From NCBI RefSeq assembly GCF_013315695.1, contig NZ_CP054353.1: a DNA stretch of 64,000 nt; one strand, 5' to 3'. This document shows, one piece after another, positions 30,161 through 45,395 of the stretch. Position numbers and translations under genes: made by a program. The stretch's first letter is position 1. The number at the start of each line of letters is the position of its first letter. Below the pieces are notes generated by a model. It did no database searches and had not been told where the DNA came from. It saw only the letters and a list, made by a program, of their open reading frames with translations. Source of the stretch: Escherichia coli (GTDB lineage Bacteria > Pseudomonadota > Gammaproteobacteria > Enterobacterales > Enterobacteriaceae).

Positions 30161-31078
30161 TTAAGTTGTTGGATTTTGGCTTTTATCTTCTTTGTAAGAA
30201 AGAAGGTCACACATCAAATTAACTACCTTGCTGAATTGGAAAAGGTCAGCGCCAGTCTGATGACGCCACTGGAATGCTTTATCATCTTCATCATTAAATG
30301 TCTGAGATTGAGTATTGATGCGCGAAAAATGGAAATTTTCGGTAAGAATGAAGGTCACACCGCAACCGGATAACTCCATTTTATCAGCAGTGAAACTACT
30401 ACTAAGGCTATCGGCCAGTTCGCTTTGAATTGACTCATGCTCAGCTGAGTAGCGAATAATTTCCTTTTGATCTGCGTAGCGTGATAGCTGAATATAATTT
30501 CCGACAGTGAATCCTTCAAATGCATTGGCTGCACCATTGATGTAGTTATTCAGGCGTGTAGTCAGTCCATTCTTGATATCACTGATGTTGATTGTTTCTG
30601 TTTTCACTGAACCGACAACCTTAATCAGCATTGCGCATACCATACCGGCTATTATTTTATTGGTTGTGTTGATTACCAATAATTTCTCATCAGTGCTGTA
30701 CAATGCAAGAATCAGAGTAGACTTAACAAATGCCTGTTTGCATAGATCTACTCGTACGTTATCAATAATGGCCAGTCGTTCGGCACGCTTTAATTTATTC
30801 CCGGACATATTTTCGGTTGTTTGGATTCGAGAATTAGCTTCTTTCATGACGACATGTCGGGGAATTATTTTCTGATCATGACGGATTACCATTGCGTACC
30901 CACCAGATATCGGAGTTACCAGTTCACCAGTGACAGGATTCTCTACAAAAGAGGACCGTGAAAATTCTGTTTCCCCGATTTCAGAATAAGGGAGTTCGAG
31001 AAGATGACCTTCAATAGCCTGTATACTAGGTAATGTTGCTCGGTACACAATTGCGTTACGAAATTTTGGTAATTTCAT
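30161..31078 (-). CDS. RdgC-like recombination-associated protein
   Basis: Long ORF 30161..31279; likely start MKLPKFRNAIVYRATLP at 31078 with a GAGGAAAA RBS; RdgC-like N-terminus; AT-rich. Confidence 0.5.
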   Translation of the reverse strand: MKLPKFRNAIVYRATLPSIQAIEGHLLELPYSEIGETEFSRSSFVENPVTGELVTPISGGYAMVIRHDQKIIPRHVVMKEANSRIQTTENMSGNKLKRAERLAIIDNVRVDLCKQAFVKSTLILALYSTDEKLLVINTTNKIIAGMVCAMLIKVVGSVKTETINISDIKNGLTTRLNNYINGAANAFEGFTVGNYIQLSRYADQKEIIRYSAEHESIQSELADSLSSSFTADKMELSGCGVTFILTENFHFSRINTQSQTFNDEDDKAFQWRHQTGADLFQFSKVVNLMCDLLSYKEDKSQNPTT

Positions 31079-31692
31079 TCTATTTTCCTCTGCACAATGT
31101 ATTAGTTTCTCCACAAAACAGAGAAGAACACCTGCGGTGGCAGCCGCCCGGATGGATTGGGTTATGAGCCCGTCGTCCGGTGATGCTCTTCTCTGTTTTG
31201 TAAAAAGAGCGGTACCAGCCGGAAGCAAGTGTACAAACTGGTACCGCCAAAGCAGTGGCTGTTGTGGTGGGGTTGTCACTCAGGCGTATGGTCAACCTGA
31301 CAACCCGGTGTCCTCAACGGGGAAAGAGTAACCCCGCCATACTTACCGCCGCGCCATTTCGCGGATTACCACAACGCTGAGAGCACTTAGCCAGTTACGG
31401 CACCACACTTTGTCGCGGTTCCATAAATGCCCTCATCGTTGCACCCTGGTCTCTTCCCAGGCGTCAAACCGAATCGCCACGCTGGTTAGGCGTCTTATCA
31501 GCATCCTCATTGACTTGCACATTCCGGCTATCTGGTTTGTTTGCCCGAGCAAGGAGTGGATTGTCCCCTTTAACGTCCCCAGACCGCTAACGACGCATGT
31601 GCCATACGCCGTGTTACAACCAAATTTTGTTAGTACCTTGTTTGTAGGTCTGGAGAGAAAGATAAAATGAAGTTGCGCATTATGCAAGTGTT

Positions 31693-31710
31693 TTATTGCG
31701 AGATAAGCAA
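31693..31710. promoter_or_regulatory. candidate OL operator
   Basis: ttattgcgagataagcaa is a near-copy of ttattgcgcgttaagcaa in the cI-cro intergenic region. Confidence 0.5.
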
Positions 31711-31719
31711 TTTGGTGGG

Positions 31720-31745
31720 TAATGAAAAGCCACCTTCTGGTGGCT
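31720..31745 (-). terminator. intrinsic terminator downstream of cI
   Basis: agccacc-ttct-ggtggct hairpin followed (minus strand) by a U-rich tract, about 25 bp past the cI stop. Confidence 0.55.
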
Positions 31746-31766
31746 AATTGATGTTGAGGTAGGGGG

Positions 31767-32459
31767 TTAATTGTGTCGCTTAAGGGTCTGTGACTGACTG
31801 ATTAAGACCTTTCCAAAGACCATAAACCGGTGTTCGTTTTCGCTGGTAATTCCCCATTCGCGGTAAATCTGATTATCAGAAATTACCAGCAGTTTATCAG
31901 GTATCATTTGCAGTCGTTTGACGTAAATTTTATCATCAAAACCAAATACATATATACCATCCCCATCAAACTGATTGATACTGATATCAACGAAGATGAG
32001 ATCTCCTGGCTCAATGGTTGGACACATACTGTCCCCACGAACGTTGATAACTTTAATGTGATTTGCTGGTCGTCCACCAAACATCGATACAGCATTATCA
32101 GTTCTGTATTCAATGGCATGAATCACATCAATGACATCACCGCCCTGGATAAGGCCATTTCCCGCACTGGCACTGACATCCAGCATTTCAATACGGAATA
32201 CATCCTTCACCTGCGTAACATCCTCACTAATACTGTTTTTACATACAGTATTACTTTTGAGGTCTGAGGTAAAGAGATCAGCAATATCAACACCTAAGCT
32301 CCTGGCAATATTACTCAGGGCTTGTTCAGTGAATTGTTTCTGCTTACCTGTTTCGAGGCGCGAGATATTCGCCGCATCCACTCCTATTGCTTCAGCGAGA
32401 TCGGCGATTTTCATGTTCTTCGCCTGGCGAAGTTGTCTGACTCGATTTCCTATGTTCAT
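31767..32459 (-). CDS. cI: CI-like phage repressor (HTH plus S24 LexA-like peptidase domain)
   Basis: 230-aa ORF with N-terminal HTH (IADLAEAIGVDAANISRLETGK) and C-terminal S24 motifs (GDSMCPTI ... KRL); divergent from cro. Confidence 0.85.
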   Translation of the reverse strand: MNIGNRVRQLRQAKNMKIADLAEAIGVDAANISRLETGKQKQFTEQALSNIARSLGVDIADLFTSDLKSNTVCKNSISEDVTQVKDVFRIEMLDVSASAGNGLIQGGDVIDVIHAIEYRTDNAVSMFGGRPANHIKVINVRGDSMCPTIEPGDLIFVDISINQFDGDGIYVFGFDDKIYVKRLQMIPDKLLVISDNQIYREWGITSENEHRFMVFGKVLISQSQTLKRHN

Positions 32460-32556
32460 GCGTTTATTACATTTCTTTATTGCGCGTTAAGCAAATCAAC
32501 TTGCGCAAAATATTTGCGTGAAATAATATGCTCATCACGCAATATGTGGAGGTTAT
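32460..32556. promoter_or_regulatory. OR/PR/PRM-like switch region
   Basis: 97-bp AT-rich divergent intergenic region with repeated TTGCGC-containing operator-like half-sites. Confidence 0.6.
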
Positions 32557-32817
32557 ATGCAATCACCATTACGGAATGTGCGTAAGGCGCACGGATTTAC
32601 TTTGCAGCATGTTGCTGCGGGCGTTCAGGTCAATCCAGCGACGCTGAGTCGTATTGAAAGACTGGAACAAATTCCATCTATCGATCTTGCAGAACGTCTG
32701 GCCAATTTTTTTAAGGGTGAAATCAGCGAAATGCAGATTCTTTATCCGGCACGTTTTCAATCTAGCCAAAACCAGAATGGGTTTAAACCACAGGAACAGG
32801 AGGTAAGCCGTGGGTAA
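32557..32817 (+). CDS. cro: Cro-like HTH (XRE-family) regulator
   Basis: 86-aa ORF with HTH LQHVAAGVQVNPATLSRIE; first gene rightward of the switch. Confidence 0.75.
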   Translation: MQSPLRNVRKAHGFTLQHVAAGVQVNPATLSRIERLEQIPSIDLAERLANFFKGEISEMQILYPARFQSSQNQNGFKPQEQEVSRG

Positions 32818-33367
32818 GCATCATTGGAAAGTGGAAAAACAGCCTGAGTGGTACGTGAAAGCTGTCAGAAAAACTATCGCGGCGTTGCCGGGGGGTTACG
32901 CTGAAGCTGCTGAGTGGCTGGATGTAACAGAGAACGCATTATTCAACCGCCTTCGTGCAGATGGCGATCAGATTTTCCCGCTGGGATGGGCAATGGTTTT
33001 ACAGCGTGCGGCTGGCACTCACTACATTGCGGATGCTGTCGCACAGTCTGCTGGTGGGGTGTTCGTATCGCTTCCTGAAATTGAGGCAGTAGAGAACGCC
33101 GATATAAACCAGCGCCTGCTGGAAGTCATTGAACAGATCGGCAGTTATTCCAGACAGATTCGTTCAGCAATCGAAGACGGTGTAGTGGAACCGCATGAGA
33201 AGACAGCAATTAACGACGAACTGTATCTTTCAATTTCGAAGCTCCAGGAGCATGCAGCACTGGTCTACAAAATCTTCTGCGCTCCAGAAAAGAGTAACGC
33301 CCGCGAGTGTGCAGCTCCGGGCGTCGTGGCGTCGATTGCTTCTGGTTGTGGAGAAACTAACGCATGA
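32810..33367 (+). CDS. hypothetical regulator in the cII position (possibly YmfL-like)
   Basis: 185-aa ORF overlapping the cro stop and the next start. Confidence 0.4.
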   Translation: MGKHHWKVEKQPEWYVKAVRKTIAALPGGYAEAAEWLDVTENALFNRLRADGDQIFPLGWAMVLQRAAGTHYIADAVAQSAGGVFVSLPEIEAVENADINQRLLEVIEQIGSYSRQIRSAIEDGVVEPHEKTAINDELYLSISKLQEHAALVYKIFCAPEKSNARECAAPGVVASIASGCGETNA

Positions 33368-34509
33368 ATAGTTTAACGGCAAATAACCGTTTGTCGCAAC
33401 AGCTGGTGGTCAGCGTCGCTGAACACCTGTTGTTACGGCATGAATGCAGATTACCAAATCACCTGGCTGTAAGTAACCACAGAGAACTTTACCTGACTGT
33501 GGGGGGCGAGTTGTGCAGGAACTTAACCGCTGGTTTCGTGACGGAAGAGGGCTTTATGTCCATGTTATTCGTTGGGAGCCAGAAACACAGCGCGTTATCT
33601 ATCTTCGCAAAGACTACCCGCATGAGTGCTTTAGTCCTTTGTGGAAATTCAGGCGTGATTTTGTTGAGTGTGAAGGACCACCAGCATATTGATTCTGCAA
33701 TTCCGGGACGTTACACTGTTCAGGCACCTTATAAAGCGGGTGCCGGGATTGGCGTCCTGAAATTCGCACATGCGCATAACCGCGCTTCAGCGGTTTTTTT
33801 GCGCACGTTTCCTCACATCCAAATTATGGTGGGGCGTGCAGGGGCATCGAAAGATGCGCCGGGGTCATGTGCGACCGGTTACGCCAACCCTGTACGTCTC
33901 ACCACCTCTGTGATTGGCGTCCCATGTGGTGAGTTTTCAAAATTCGCACATGAGGATGTCACTATGGCAACCACCCCTACCCAAACTCACCCTAAAATTG
34001 ATGTTATCCATGGGAAGGCTGTTACCTCTTCTTTGGCCGTTGCCGAATATTTCTGCAAGCAGCACAAAAACGTTATTCAAAAAATCCAGACGCTTGAGTG
34101 CTCTGTTGAATTCACTGAGCTGAATTTTCAGCCCAGTGATTACACCGATTGCACAGGCCGCAAACTCCCTTGTTACCAAATCACCCGCGACGGTTTTGCG
34201 TTTCTTGCCATGGGCTTCACGGGGAAACGTGCTGCCCGGTTCAAAGAGGCATACATCAATGCCTTTAACCAGATGGAGAAACAGCTTTCAAATCCCTCTG
34301 TACTGAGCGACGTTGCACATAACGCCAGCGTTCTCTATTCCTACATTTCATCAATTCATCAGGTCTGGCTGCAGCAGCTTTATCCTATGTTGGCAAAAGC
34401 CGAATCTCCGCTGGCTGTTAGCTTGTATGACTATATTAATGATGCTTCGGCGCTGGCCTGCCTCATAAATTTGTCGCTGAATCCTTCAGAGGTAAGGGGG
34501 CGTAAATGA
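33364..34509 (+). CDS. Rha-family phage regulatory protein, copy 1 (variable N-terminal region plus Rha domain)
   Basis: C-terminal ITRDGFAFLAMGFTGKRAARFKEAYINAFNQME matches the Rha-domain signature as I recall it; possible internal start near 33965 (MATTPTQ...). Confidence 0.65.
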   Translation: MNSLTANNRLSQQLVVSVAEHLLLRHECRLPNHLAVSNHRELYLTVGGELCRNLTAGFVTEEGFMSMLFVGSQKHSALSIFAKTTRMSALVLCGNSGVILLSVKDHQHIDSAIPGRYTVQAPYKAGAGIGVLKFAHAHNRASAVFLRTFPHIQIMVGRAGASKDAPGSCATGYANPVRLTTSVIGVPCGEFSKFAHEDVTMATTPTQTHPKIDVIHGKAVTSSLAVAEYFCKQHKNVIQKIQTLECSVEFTELNFQPSDYTDCTGRKLPCYQITRDGFAFLAMGFTGKRAARFKEAYINAFNQMEKQLSNPSVLSDVAHNASVLYSYISSIHQVWLQQLYPMLAKAESPLAVSLYDYINDASALACLINLSLNPSEVRGRK

Positions 34510-35387
34510 TCCGGAATATTTTCAAACTGTTTACCAATCGCCACCAGCATATTGATTCTGCAATTCCGGGACGTTACACTGTTCAGGCACCTTATAAAGC
34601 GGGTGCCGGGATTGGCGTCCTGAAATTGTCAACGGCGATGTATGACGCGCCAGCGTCTTTTTTATCGTCCGCATTTGCTCACATCCAGATTATGGTGGGC
34701 TGGGCGGGGGCACCGAAAGGTGCGCCGGTCTCCGTTGACGCCGGTTACGCCAACCCCGTCCAGTTCACCACCAGTGAAATTGGCGTTTCCGGTGGTGGAA
34801 GTTTTTCACTGTCAACGGAGGCTGCCATCATGGCTACGATCCCAGCCCTCACTCAACCTGAAATCACCATTGACAACGGCCAGGCCGTTACCACTTCTTT
34901 GGCTGTTGCCAACTTCTTCTCCAAGCGTCACGACGATGTGCTGAAAAAGATCCGCACTCTGGATTGTTCCCCTGAGTTTTGTGCCCGCAATTTTGCGGAG
35001 ACATCGATTTCGGTAAATCAACCGAACGGTGGTACACGCAAGCTCCTTTGCTATCAAATCACACGAGACGGTTTTGCGTTTCTTGCTATGGGTTTCACGG
35101 GTAAACGTGCTGCCCGGTTCAAAGAGGCATACATCAATGCCTTTAACCAGATGGAAAAACTGCTTTCAAAGCCATCCACGCTGAGCGATGCCGCAGATAA
35201 CGCCAGCGTGCTTTACTCCCACCTGTCGGTAATCCACAAGGTCTGGCTGCAGCAGCTTTATCCCATGTTGGCAAAAGCCGAATCCCCGCTGGCTGTAAGT
35301 CTGTATGACCGCATCAACGACGCGGCGCTACTGGCCAGTCTCATAAATTTGTCGCTGAACCCTTCAGAGGTAAGGGGGCGTAAATGA
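34506..35387 (+). CDS. Rha-family phage regulatory protein, copy 2 (tandem paralogue)
   Basis: 293-aa ORF; same Rha C-terminal motif; N-terminus MIRNIFKLFTNRHQHIDSAIPGRY repeats a segment inside copy 1. Confidence 0.65.
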   Translation: MIRNIFKLFTNRHQHIDSAIPGRYTVQAPYKAGAGIGVLKLSTAMYDAPASFLSSAFAHIQIMVGWAGAPKGAPVSVDAGYANPVQFTTSEIGVSGGGSFSLSTEAAIMATIPALTQPEITIDNGQAVTTSLAVANFFSKRHDDVLKKIRTLDCSPEFCARNFAETSISVNQPNGGTRKLLCYQITRDGFAFLAMGFTGKRAARFKEAYINAFNQMEKLLSKPSTLSDAADNASVLYSHLSVIHKVWLQQLYPMLAKAESPLAVSLYDRINDAALLASLINLSLNPSEVRGRK

Positions 35388-42691: not shown

Positions 42692-42767
42692 GGCCCTTTA
42701 GCTCAGTGGTGAGAGCGAGCGATTCATAATCGCCAGGTCGCTGGTTCAAATCCAGCAAGGGCCACCA
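42692..42767 (+). tRNA. tRNA with CAU anticodon (Ile2/Met-type; ileZ-like)
   Basis: Cloverleaf GGCCCTT-TA-GCTCAGTGGTGAGAGC..anticodon loop TTCATAA..GGTTCAAATCC..AAGGGCC-A-CCA. Confidence 0.85.
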
Positions 42768-42774
42768 TCACATA

Positions 42775-42851
42775 CCGCCATTAGCTCATCAGGATAGAGC
42801 GCCAGCCTTCGAAGCTGGTTGCGCGGGGTTCGAGTCCTCGATGGCGGTCCA
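42775..42851 (+). tRNA. tRNA-Arg (anticodon UCG; argN-like)
   Basis: Acceptor CCGCCAT/ATGGCGG, anticodon loop CTTCGAA, T-loop GGTTCGAGTCC, encoded CCA. Confidence 0.8.
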
Positions 42852-42864
42852 TTATCTGTACCCT

Positions 42865-42941
42865 GCGTTATTAGCTCAGCCGGACAGAGCAATTGCCTTC
42901 TAAGCAATCGGTCACTGGTTCGAATCCAGTACAACGCGCCA
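42865..42941 (+). tRNA. tRNA-Arg (anticodon UCU; argO/argU-like)
   Basis: GCGTTATTAGCTCAGCCGGACAGAGC..anticodon loop CTTCTAA..GGTTCGAATCC..CGCCA, close to host argU. Confidence 0.8.
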
Positions 42942-42954
42942 GACTTATTTTTCC

Positions 42955-42980
42955 CGGCTCGCTTTTGCGGGCTTTTTTTT
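42955..42980 (+). terminator. rho-independent terminator after the tRNA cluster
   Basis: gctcgc-tttt-gcgggc hairpin followed by eight T. Confidence 0.7.
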
Positions 42981-43433
42981 AAATGTCTCACAATTCAGAC
43001 GGTTGACAGTTGTCTGTTTTGCGGGGAGTTTGTTAAAAGAAACTGGCATGGTGAATCCCCCTGTGCGGAGGGGCAATCAGCAACTGGTGTTTTGTCACCG
43101 ACCCTTATCCTTTCTGTGCGGGTTCAGGTGCTGATACTGAACTCACCGGGAGGCACCCGGCATCATGTGCATGATGATACAGATACGCGGCTTTAGCCCC
43201 TCTCCGGAGGGGCTTTCTTGTGGGCAAAAAAAAGCCCGAGTGGGTTCGGGCAACAGCATGAGATATACATTTTTATAATCGAATGGATTTTAACCAGAAT
43301 TCATAAGGCTGCGCAACTGCGCGGTCTTTTTCGAATTGCGGGCTGTCGTCTCTCTTCTGCCATTGTCCTGTAACTTCCGGACTTCAGCCCGCTCCTTATT
43401 TTACTCACAATATTATCCCGGCCGGGAGGATTC

Positions 43434-45395
43434 ATGGCATTTAAACACTATGACGTGGTCAGGGCGGCATCGCCGTCAGACCTTGCGAAACGACTGACAC
43501 AAAAACTGAAGGAGGGGTGGCAGCCATTTGGCAGTCCGGTGGCCATCACGCCTTATACCCTGATGCAGGCCATTGCGGCGGAAGGTGATGTCACCACACC
43601 TGTGGTGGTGAAGCCGTCGGATGGAGAAGGCGCAGTTATCAGCAACACCAGCAACCCGGAGTATTACTTTGTTGTTGCCCTGGCCGGGCAGTCAAACGGT
43701 ATGGCGTATGGTGAAGGGCTTCCGCTGCCGGAGACATATGACCGTCCGGACCCGCGTATTAAACAGCTGGCGCGTCGCAGCACTGTCACGCCGGGTGGTG
43801 CGTCCTGTAACTACAATGACATTATTCCTGCGGACCACTGCCTGCATGATGTTCAGGATTTGAGTAAGTTTTCACACCCGAAAGCCAGCGCAGCTCAGTA
43901 TGGATGCGTGGGGCAGGGATTACATATCGCGAAGAAATTGTTGCCGTTTATTCCGGCGAATGCCGGTATTCTTCTGGTTCCGTGCTGCCGTGGTGGTTCT
44001 GCATTTTTGGCGGGCGATGAAGGTACCTTCAGCGAATCCACCGGCGCAAGCGAGACCTCGGCACGCTGGGGTGTAGATAAGCCACTGTACAAGGACCTGC
44101 TTACCCGTACTCAGGCCGCACTGAAGGCCAACCCTAAAAATATTCTGCTTGCAGTGGTCTGGATGCAGGGCGAGTTTGATTTGAAACAGGGTGCATACGC
44201 CACTCAGCCGGGGCTGTTTGATTCCATGGTGGAAAAATATCGTTCTGACCTGTCGGAATTCGGAGGTCAGTGTCTCGGGGGCTCTCCGTCATCAGTTCCC
44301 TGGATTTGTGGCGACACGACCTACTACTGGAAGCAGACTTATTCTTCGCAATACGATGCGGTGTATGGTGCATATAAGACGAAATCCGCAAAAAAAATCT
44401 TCTTTGTGCCGTTTATGACGGATGAAAACGGGCGAAATGTGGGTACCAACGAGCCGTCAGAAGATCCGGATGTTGCGGATATTGGGTATTACGGAGCCGG
44501 TGGTCGAACGGACGCCAAAACCTGGACGACGGCTGACCGTAAAACGCATTTTGGATCATGGGCACGTCGTGGGATTATTTCCGACCGTCTGGCAACGGCG
44601 ATTCTTGTGCATGCCGGGAGAACCGCTGAATTCATTACCGGAAAACAGCCTGATACGGTGAAGCCCACCGGACCTTCCGGTGAAGGTACGGAGAGAGAGC
44701 CGGAAGGTCCGGTCAGTAACCGAACCCTGATGAGTCTGCTGGCGTCCGGCGAAGACCTGGCATCACAGGGCTGGCGCTATTATCACAAACCGGCGAGCGG
44801 AGACAATGTTAACAAAAACATTGCTGAAGCGGTGGTCAGTGATGCGGGGGCTACGGGAGGTAAGGCCCTGCAACTGAATAAACCGGAAAACCACATCTGG
44901 TTTCTGGAGCATGATGCAGCCGGGCAGGGGGCAGAGTTGCTGAAGAAAGGAGGACGTGTGAGCGTACGGTTTAAGTTGCCGGGTTCACTGGTGCCGAATC
45001 AGTTTGCCCTGGGCATTTACTGGCAGTTGTCGTCCCTGCCGGAGGGAGTGACGCTGGCAGAGGAAGGCAACGACATGCTGATGTCCTTCTTTCTGCAGAC
45101 GGATGCGACGAACCTGAACGCGATGCACCACAAGAAGCCGAATGCGAAGCTGGAAACGTTCGGGGTCTTTGATAACGGATGGCACACACTGGCTTTTGAG
45201 TTTGCCGGAAACAACAGCATTCAGGTGACGCCGGTACTGGATGAGAAACGGGGGACGCCGTTCACACTGGTGAAATCTCCGGCATCAGGGGCGGCGGACA
45301 AACTGCAACTGACAGGCATATCAAAGGCGGCGACATATACGCTGCTGATTGACAGTGTGAAGGTGGAAGTGAACAACGCGGATGCCGCGGCATGA
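43434..45395 (+). CDS. nanS-p: prophage sialate O-acetylesterase (NanS-p-like)
   Basis: 653-aa ORF; position and sequence recalled as the esterase found downstream of stx in Stx phages. Confidence 0.65.
   Translation: MAFKHYDVVRAASPSDLAKRLTQKLKEGWQPFGSPVAITPYTLMQAIAAEGDVTTPVVVKPSDGEGAVISNTSNPEYYFVVALAGQSNGMAYGEGLPLPETYDRPDPRIKQLARRSTVTPGGASCNYNDIIPADHCLHDVQDLSKFSHPKASAAQYGCVGQGLHIAKKLLPFIPANAGILLVPCCRGGSAFLAGDEGTFSESTGASETSARWGVDKPLYKDLLTRTQAALKANPKNILLAVVWMQGEFDLKQGAYATQPGLFDSMVEKYRSDLSEFGGQCLGGSPSSVPWICGDTTYYWKQTYSSQYDAVYGAYKTKSAKKIFFVPFMTDENGRNVGTNEPSEDPDVADIGYYGAGGRTDAKTWTTADRKTHFGSWARRGIISDRLATAILVHAGRTAEFITGKQPDTVKPTGPSGEGTEREPEGPVSNRTLMSLLASGEDLASQGWRYYHKPASGDNVNKNIAEAVVSDAGATGGKALQLNKPENHIWFLEHDAAGQGAELLKKGGRVSVRFKLPGSLVPNQFALGIYWQLSSLPEGVTLAEEGNDMLMSFFLQTDATNLNAMHHKKPNAKLETFGVFDNGWHTLAFEFAGNNSIQVTPVLDEKRGTPFTLVKSPASGAADKLQLTGISKAATYTLLIDSVKVEVNNADAAA

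Follow-up and report, generated by a model that had tools for sequence, protein, structure and literature searches.

A 64,000-nucleotide stretch of the Escherichia coli contig NZ_CP054353.1 (assembly GCF_013315695.1), hereafter the window, holds a prophage whose repressor gene, cI, is flanked on each side by one of two closely similar 18-bp sequences. Our results indicate that these 18-mers are very probably two of at least four operators of the CI repressor, in a lambdoid prophage of the mEp460/SfII/ST64B immunity type. Repeat finding and pattern searches delimit the operator unit to 15 bp. It is a pseudo-palindrome, TTGCG-N5-CGCAA, whose half-sites are inverted repeats spaced 10 bp apart, the geometry to be expected of a helix-turn-helix (HTH) dimer.

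The right copy (TTATTGCGCGTTAAGCAA, 32477-32494) lies on the plus strand in the 97-bp spacer between the divergent cI and cro genes, and the left copy (TTATTGCGAGATAAGCAA, 31693-31710), on the same strand, just past the cI terminator hairpin, which we located at 31728-31745. A first-pass annotation of the window had reported the pair at these coordinates, with two differences between the copies and the terminator next to the left one, and all of this was borne out. A motif search found no further match to the 18-mer at up to three mismatches in the 64 kb, where 0.10 matches would be expected and two or more occurred in 0 of 100 shuffles; when the 127 bp downstream of cI were compared with the cI-cro spacer, 3 of 1,000 composition-preserving shuffles produced a 16/18 match (P ~0.003). 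The annotation had also pointed to additional TTGCGC(A) half-sites in the spacer, and the pentamer TTGCG or its complement CGCAA is indeed present five times in these 97 bp against 0.27 expected (Poisson P ~1e-5). Both mismatches between the 18-mers fall within the variable central N5 of the 15-mer, and the leading TTA of the 18-mer varies in relatives, the conserved unit being the 15-mer TTGCG-N5-nGCAA.

A position weight matrix (PWM) trained solely on sites of the phages SfII, ST64B, Flotzy and Klebsiella ST147-VIM1phi7.2 (hereafter the Klebsiella phage) places four sites of the window at ranks 1-4 in the whole 64 kb, all within two stretches of ~40-60 bp flanking cI (Table 1). Named after their lambda counterparts in the left and right operator regions (OL and OR), these are OL1 (20.9 bits, the top score), the OR3-equivalent (16.6 bits), OL2 (16.4 bits) and the OR1-equivalent (14.7 bits). 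The proposal that the two 18-mers are candidate OR and OL operators is thus supported by computation as to their nature and revised as to their extent, 15 bp rather than 18. It also needed completing: the two named sites match lambda OR3 and OL2, not the operators that would directly occlude the rightward and leftward promoters (PR and PL), and OL1 and OR1 had been overlooked as full sites. No third OL site was found, by sequence or PWM, 23 bp to either side of OL1 and OL2.

Between OR3 and OR1 lies a fifth sequence that we read as a candidate weak OR2. Its left half sits in the self-complementary TTGCGCAA (32501-32508), the same bases forming the predicted PR -35, and CTTGCGCA, which holds that -35, is invariant in six of six lineages. 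The full 15-mer matches the consensus at 9 of 10 half-site positions in Flotzy (TTGCGCAAGTCGTAA) and in the Klebsiella phage (TTGCGCAATTCGCCA) and at only 5 of 10 here. The everted palindrome CGCAAAATATTTGCG (32504-32518), whose centre lies exactly 24 bp from OR3, was considered as OR2 and rejected, since Flotzy, ST64B and the Klebsiella phage lack it.

The evidence that carries the operator assignment is conservation. Nine relatives were fetched, with CI identities of 99.6% (PhiR47_1), 99.1% (mEp460), 97.8% (1720a-02), 97.4% (Stx2a_1447), 95.7% (SfII), 83.5% (ST64B), 70.6% (Klebsiella phage), 68.3% (Flotzy) and 50% (Cronobacter ENT47670). The operator sites are retained in all nine and the intervening DNA diverges; each has, within 260 bp of cI, 5-7 sites that agree with TTGCG-N5-CGCAA at no fewer than 8 of 10 positions. 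Across six lineages spanning 50-100% CI identity, the invariant alignment columns are the half-sites, promoter hexamers, the Shine-Dalgarno sequence and the start codons. Site by site, TTGC...GCAA of OL1 is invariant across five lineages, OL2 is found in every relative, and TGCG...GCAA of OR3 and ATGC...CGCA of OR1 are invariant across the six, OR1 reading ATGCGTAATACGCAA in Flotzy and the Klebsiella phage. The recognition helix is unchanged wherever the TTGCG half-site is kept; in the Cronobacter phage the helix is altered and the sites read ATGCG-N5-CGCAT, with the outer half-site base changed. None of the fetched records of this cI type carries an operator annotation.

Judged by the identity of repressor and operators, the prophage belongs to the mEp460/SfII immunity type: the N-terminal 44 residues of CI are identical to those of SfII, and the operators match. 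The same type comprises mEp460, PhiR47_1/R40_1/R55_1, phiSTEC1575-Stx2k, 1720a-02, Stx2a_1447/WGPS2 and SfII (CI 95.7-99.6%), and the wider family ST64B, the Klebsiella phage, Flotzy and phiNP (CI 68-84%). The fetched members of both groups, in which the sites were read directly, have operators of one consensus at matching positions and the same recognition helix, and phiSTEC1575-Stx2k, WGPS2 and phiNP are assigned by cI identity. These phages differ in their OL centres and in an OL1-OL2 spacing of 23 versus 24 bp.

The same pattern appears at much shorter evolutionary distance. A scan of IMG/VR yielded 80 loci with cI at least 99% identical, representing 50 haplotypes. The OR region is near-invariant among them, with OR3 identical in 79 of the 80, and the OL region resolves into 37 haplotypes. 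Within OL, 3 of 20 half-site columns vary among the 50 haplotypes, compared with 9 of 10 centre columns and ~52% of the surrounding non-coding columns (Fisher P = 8e-4 and 1e-4); the contrast holds for OL1 (half-sites 1/10, centre 5/5) and for OL2 (2/10 and 4/5). Constant half-sites with variable centres are the signature to be expected of an HTH dimer contacting the outer 5 bp on each side. The OL1-OL2 spacer (31688-31695) varies in length through its run of 4 or 5 T, the centres being 23 bp apart here and 24 bp in the commonest haplotype, and the OL2 allele of the window (A at position 11) is the minority form, found in 8 of 80 loci, T being the common base. Absence from homo-immune phages, which the first-pass annotation had named as grounds for abandoning its proposal, was not what we saw: both sites are present in all 80 loci.

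Hetero-immune phages provide the complementary observation. Phages cdtI and Ayreon share flanking DNA with the window on both sides, with ymfL and rha almost unchanged (~95% over the flanking pieces), and their cI is of the e14 type, 44% identical to the one studied here. No TTGCG-type site was found near cI in Ayreon, cdtI or HK022. In their place, cdtI and Ayreon have perfect 5-N5-5 palindromes, GATAC-N5-GTATC on the left and GTACC-N5-GGTAC on the right, with a further site 50 bp on. The e14-type module (cohE/ymfK-croE/ymfT; phages cdtI and Ayreon) resembles the present one in its flanking genes and layout, one full palindrome lying ~20 bp from the start of cI and a second one 50 bp beyond the first, and differs in its half-site (GTACC or GATAC, not TTGCG) and recognition helix. 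It is the same module in a hetero-immune allele. Towards the left, the window and the hetero-immune phages cease to be homologous at ~31631-31635, just outside the OL/PL segment, so that OL and PL belong with cI-cro to one exchangeable module. Operators and repressor specificity change together, as Ayreon and cdtI differ in cI, palindromes and helix alike, which supports the earlier suggestion that these operators define the immunity specificity of the prophage.

The operators overlap the predicted promoters of the switch, namely PL, PR and the promoter for repressor maintenance (PRM). The -10 motif T-A-n-n-T-T assigned to PL is invariant in five lineages, none of its six columns varies among the 50 haplotypes, and the Ayreon record has a depositor-annotated leftward promoter at the equivalent place. 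For PR, the -35 and the TA..AT of the -10 are invariant in six lineages, and the cro Shine-Dalgarno sequence GGAGG follows at 32549-32553. We infer the placement of PRM by analogy with lambda PRM; five of the six lineages keep ATTACA, the complement strand of its -10, always equally far from the cI ATG. That ATG (A at 32459) has no Shine-Dalgarno sequence upstream and the predicted PRM start falls at or beside its A, which suggests that the cI mRNA is probably leaderless, as in lambda. The predicted PR and PRM starts are ~77 bp apart. The best spacer hit of a promoter scan, leftward TCCACA-16-TATTAT, was tried as PRM and set aside: its -35 is the complement of the cro Shine-Dalgarno region, and it is not conserved in Flotzy. 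The cI terminator, identified by a terminator scan, folds at -12.3 kcal/mol (z = -4.2), and its stem is kept by compensatory changes in the Klebsiella phage and Flotzy.

Table 1. Sites, genes and predicted signals of the immunity region, in window coordinates
Feature	Position	Strand	Sequence or product	Remarks
OL1	31673-31687		TTGCGCATTATGCAA	Overlaps -35 and spacer of predicted PL
OL2	31696-31710		TTGCGAGATAAGCAA	Core of left 18-mer; promoter-distal; centre 23 bp from that of OL1
OR3-equivalent	32480-32494		TTGCGCGTTAAGCAA	Core of right 18-mer; overlaps -35 and spacer of predicted PRM
OR2-equivalent (candidate)	32501-32515		TTGCGCAAAATATTT	Left half perfect, right half degenerate in this phage
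OR1-equivalent	32528-32542		ATGCTCATCACGCAA	Overlaps end of predicted PR -10 and transcription start
Possible extra operator	32578-32592		GTGCGTAAGGCGCAC	cro codons 8-12; centre 50 bp from that of OR1
PL (predicted)	31659-31687	-	-35 TTGCAT 31687-31682, 17-nt spacer, -10 TATCTT 31664-31659	Start near 31652
PRM (predicted)	32466-32494	-	-35 TTGCTT 32494-32489, 17-nt spacer, -10 TGTAAT 32471-32466	
PR (predicted)	32501-32529	+	-35 TTGCGC 32501-32506, 17-nt spacer, -10 TAATAT 32524-32529	Start near 32536
cI intrinsic terminator	31728-31745	-	Hairpin AGCCACC-AGAA-GGTGGCT, then U-run	
cI repressor	31767-32459	-	230 aa	Pfam Peptidase_S24 (6e-19), HTH_3/HTH_26/HTH_31; PHROG 4, transcriptional repressor
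cro-like	32557-32817	+	86 aa	Pfam HTH_3; PHROG 3; recognition helix PATLSRIE
cII-like (YmfL / Phage_CP76)	32810-33367	+		Pfam PF06892 (3e-15); PHROG 101, CII-like activator (3e-73)

The protein families encoded by the module also speak for this assignment. The CI recognition helix lies at about residues 29-36 (AANISRLE), the N-terminal domain can be aligned with a 434-type repressor and the C-terminal one with UmuD, down to the serine of GDSM and the lysine of VKRL, with Ser144/Lys181 as the S24 dyad and, as read from the sequence, Ala99-Gly100 as the candidate autocleavage site. The recognition helices of CI and Cro are alike (A-N/T-h-S-R-h-E), and Cro almost certainly binds the same operators as CI. 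The first gene after cro in the PR operon is cII-like. The cI start in the records of mEp460, 1720a-02 and Stx2a_1447 lies 45 nt downstream of the one used here (648 versus 693 nt), which drops residues 1-15, and these align to helix 1 of the 434-type HTH domain; the late starts are probably start-codon mis-annotations.

The proposed switch would work as follows. An HTH dimer would read the two outer 5-bp half-sites and leave the central 5 bp free to vary. OR1 would cover the PR -10 and start, weak OR2 the PR -35 and OR3 the PRM -35; on the left, OL1 would cover the PL -35, and OL2, 23 bp upstream, would probably help OL1 to fill cooperatively. In a lysogen, CI would hold PR and PL shut and, at high concentration, would also shut PRM through OR3. 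The ~820 bp between OL and OR would allow a CI-mediated loop as in HK022, and such looping is plausible here. Upon DNA damage, the S24 domain, stimulated by RecA, would cut CI at Ala99-Gly100 and so lift repression, as is well established for LexA-like S24 repressors; the operators would next be taken over by Cro, which would silence PRM.

Among published systems, the closest relative that we found with repressor-operator studies is HK022, whose CI is 43% identical over residues 19-228 and whose CI repressor and operators were reportedly described by Carlson and Little in 1993. The OR region of HK022 has two copies of TGAAC-N5-GTTCA, taken to be its operators, which share with the present sites the 5-N5-5 palindrome geometry, as the proteins share the fold. 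Conversely, the half-site is TGAAC there and TTGCG here, so the operators do not have HK022-type specificity and the immunity differs; the present system is a relative of the HK022 specificity group, not a member. HK022 CI has been demonstrated to loop OL to OR over ~700 bp, and an extra CI operator ~300 bp downstream of OR is involved in HK022 immunity (PMC8053113); the candidate in our prophage lies 50 bp from OR1, inside cro.

The likeness to lambda is one of design. In both phages cI and cro diverge from a spacer of ~100 bp in which three dyad-symmetric sites cover the back-to-back PR and PRM, further operators cluster at a leftward PL with adjacent OL sites 23-24 bp apart, the repressor joins an HTH to a LexA-like S24 self-cleaving domain, and the cI mRNA is (here, probably) leaderless. 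The OR1-OR3 spacing is 48 bp here and ~47 bp in lambda. By contrast, the operators are 15 bp rather than the 17 bp of lambda, OL has two sites and not three, OR2 is a half-site, and OL lies right after the cI terminator at ~820 bp from OR, with no rex genes, compared with 2.3 kb in lambda; no N gene is recognisable downstream of PL, the CII is of the 186/CP76 type, and the CI and Cro sequences are unrelated to those of lambda beyond the fold. The window has the divergent repressor and cro genes, the HTH-S24 repressor, the operators in the spacer, the OL cluster and the joint change of operators and repressor that characterize lambdoid switches, and on these features the system is a standard lambdoid immunity switch whose architecture is closest to that of HK022.

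Several observations weigh against the assignment of these sites as CI operators. The literature searched contains no binding, footprinting or transcript-mapping data for this repressor. A generic promoter scan called none of PR, PL and PRM, whose -35 elements are just TTGCnn and which match the consensus at 7-8 of 12 positions by hand (7 each for PL and PR). OR2 is only a half-site in this phage, and its spacings, 21 bp to OR3 and 27 bp to OR1, differ from the 23-24 bp of lambda. The PWM training sites are orthologous to those of the window, so that the test is not fully independent, and the scores of 14.7-16.6 bits are of a size that the top chance match in 64 kb can reach (15.3 +/- 2.3 for the null maximum). 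These scores would be compatible with a chance match between two AT-rich non-coding stretches without function, as would the window-wide frequency of TTGCG-N6-GCAA with one mismatch, which shows no enrichment (32 versus 30.6 expected). A chance match is nevertheless highly improbable, in that 3 of the 1,000 shuffles reproduced the 16/18 match, the four best PWM hits all flank cI, the half-sites stay constant against variable centres and flanks both across lineages and within the population, and hetero-immune phages replace the sites; the conservation pattern effectively refutes it. On this evidence the operator signal lies in clustering and above all in conservation, not in single-site scores. 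As to an overlapping gene as the cause of the constraint, the open reading frames (ORFs) tested just left of OL match no PHROG family.

The palindromes could instead be bound by another regulator, be it Cro alone, the CII-like YmfL, a Rha-type protein or a host factor. The Cro helix resembles that of CI, so that CI and Cro cannot be separated by sequence alone, and the TTGC repeats recall the CII sites of lambda, which have the form TTGC-N6-TTGC. We consider this unlikely: the sites co-vary with the cI-cro pair and not with cII or rha (cdtI and Ayreon keep the ymfL and rha flanks), their inverted symmetry and 10-bp half-site spacing contrast with the direct repeats of lambda CII sites, and the way they are placed, across the -35 and -10 elements of divergent promoters and past the cI terminator, is classical for a repressor. 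It could also be argued that the OL sites control no promoter and serve purely as a loop anchor that strengthens or tunes repression at OR, since PL is weak by consensus and uncalled by the scan, the ~575 nt that follow it lack any recognisable gene, an intrinsic terminator also lies downstream of it, and HK022 CI does loop OL to OR (PMC8053113). This we regard as quite improbable, because the TAnnTT -10 is invariant in lineages and population and keeps its distance from OL1, all early-left genes, the rdgC-like one among them, point leftward and need a promoter, and Ayreon has its annotated leftward promoter at the same place; looping and promoter control are, moreover, not exclusive.

An architectural variant of the lambda design can be envisioned, with only two full OR operators, TTGCGCAA between them, a cro-internal operator and a loop to OL; we consider it doubtful. 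Under this variant, TTGCGCAA would be the PR -35 plus a lone half-site between two full operators 48 bp apart, and the cro-internal operator, 50 bp beyond OR1 and kept by codon choice, may be an 'anti-virulence' site like O_FR of HK022. Sites ~48-50 bp apart might then bridge with the two OL sites in a CI loop of ~820 bp. The cro-internal site has a perfect TGCG-N5-CGCA core, one of three in the 64 kb, and matches the operator consensus at 10 of 10 positions in Flotzy (TTGCGAAAATCGCAA) and 9 of 10 in ST64B and the Klebsiella phage; in the population one of its centre columns varies compared with six neighbouring columns, a contrast that is not significant alone. It is a real, though less than even, possibility that the palindrome is an RNA hairpin that affects translation or stability of the cro mRNA rather than a DNA operator. 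It would form a stem of 6-7 bp (-8.2 kcal/mol, z = -2.05), it was flagged as terminator-like by the terminator scan, and its outer bases have changed symmetrically between lineages (T...A to G...C), which keeps pairing as well as dyad symmetry. Against a hairpin, the operator match in Flotzy, ST64B and the Klebsiella phage exceeds what an arbitrary hairpin would need, and these three phages use TTG (Leu) and TCG (Ser) codons, uncommon in E. coli, that preserve TTGCG and CGCA; HK022 also offers a precedent for a repressor operator downstream of OR (PMC8053113).

Beyond the switch itself, the early-left region has several features of its own. The predicted PL transcript (31079-31655, minus strand) has no PHROG-matching ORF in its first ~575 nt, and no ORF on either strand between PL and the rdgC-like gene, including one annotated in mEp460, matches a PHROG family; no N-like antiterminator gene is evident in this leader region. 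An Rfam scan of the whole window at gathering threshold returned no RNA family in 31000-32900. The first ~136 nt of the leader fold moderately (z = -2.95), and the leader is a mosaic between related phages. An intrinsic terminator hairpin at 31247-31209 (minus strand) is followed by a U-run, and the hairpin GCGGTACCAG...CTGGTACCGC (window 31203-31262) is part of the published small RNA sRNA-17, a 193-nt ArcA-modulated sRNA of E. coli K1 RS218 encoded in an mEp460-like prophage (PMC7719688). Mapped to the window solely through its published alignment, sRNA-17 appears to have its 3' end at this hairpin and U-run (PMC7719688); upstream of ~31262 the window differs from the RS218/UTI89 version. 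Directly after the terminator, and ~30 nt upstream of the rdgC-like gene, lies a very stable long hairpin (31110-31205, minus strand; -49.7 kcal/mol, z = -7.8, 24-bp outer stem). No other part of the leader is conserved as widely as this segment, which recurs in SfII, ST64B and Flotzy; that it is an RNase III or processing site is speculation.

The first early-left gene (30161-31078, minus strand) encodes an RdgC-like recombination-associated protein (Pfam RdgC 5e-30, PHROG 724). In the ORF list this gene reaches further upstream, over the long hairpin and the terminator, to a GTG at 31279; the ATG at 31078, served by a GAGGA Shine-Dalgarno sequence, is almost certainly the true start. In mEp460, PhiR47_1 and cdtI, yfdP/yfdQ-type genes stand in its place. 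To the right, 33364-35387 comprises two tandem Rha/Ash-type antirepressor-like genes, each containing a match to the isrK Hfq-binding RNA followed by one to the C4 antisense RNA (33724-33909 and 34587-34775; Rfam, above gathering score), and the arrangement suggests a P1/P7-style c4-ant module duplicated within the PR operon. Further on, the late region (42692-45395) resembles that of a Shiga toxin (Stx) phage, with three tRNAs, STnc100 (43017-43225), the anti-stx2 sRNA AsxR (43229-43281, minus strand) and, after AsxR, a 653-aa ORF (43434-45395) on which no family search was made. No ORF of at least 80 aa lies between AsxR and this ORF, and no stx genes were recognised in the ORF list.

The immunity type is widespread. 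Of 5,426 complete E. coli genomes, 1,028 contain at least 80% of the 2.1-kb immunity segment (31300-33400). The segment is identical to that of E. coli strain MSB1_4I, 94.9-98.2% identical to PhiR47_1, mEp460, phiSTEC1575-Stx2k, 1720a-02 and Stx2a_1447/WGPS2 and 90% identical to Shigella phage SfII. This common type is carried by Stx2a- and Stx2k-converting phages and by the Shigella serotype-converting phage SfII, and found in diverged form in Salmonella ST64B and in Klebsiella prophages. A literature search for the site sequences and for operators of SfII, SfV, ST64B and mEp460, which did not extend to the ST64B genome paper, found no description of them and no plating data on superinfection immunity within the group, and the operator consensus TTGCG-N5-CGCAA appears to be undescribed so far, while being of a well-known type. 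A 2025 paper that calls the repressor specificity of LLS and mEp460_4F5 unknown was followed as a lead and proved inapplicable, since a tblastn search with this cI hit neither phage. The finding, though correct, is unsurprising and leaves the understanding of temperate phage switches unchanged. Its value is practical: the consensus and site map can be used to predict immunity groups from sequence, to correct annotation, as in the several records that start cI 45 nt late, and to design reporter and induction experiments in Shiga-toxin phages.

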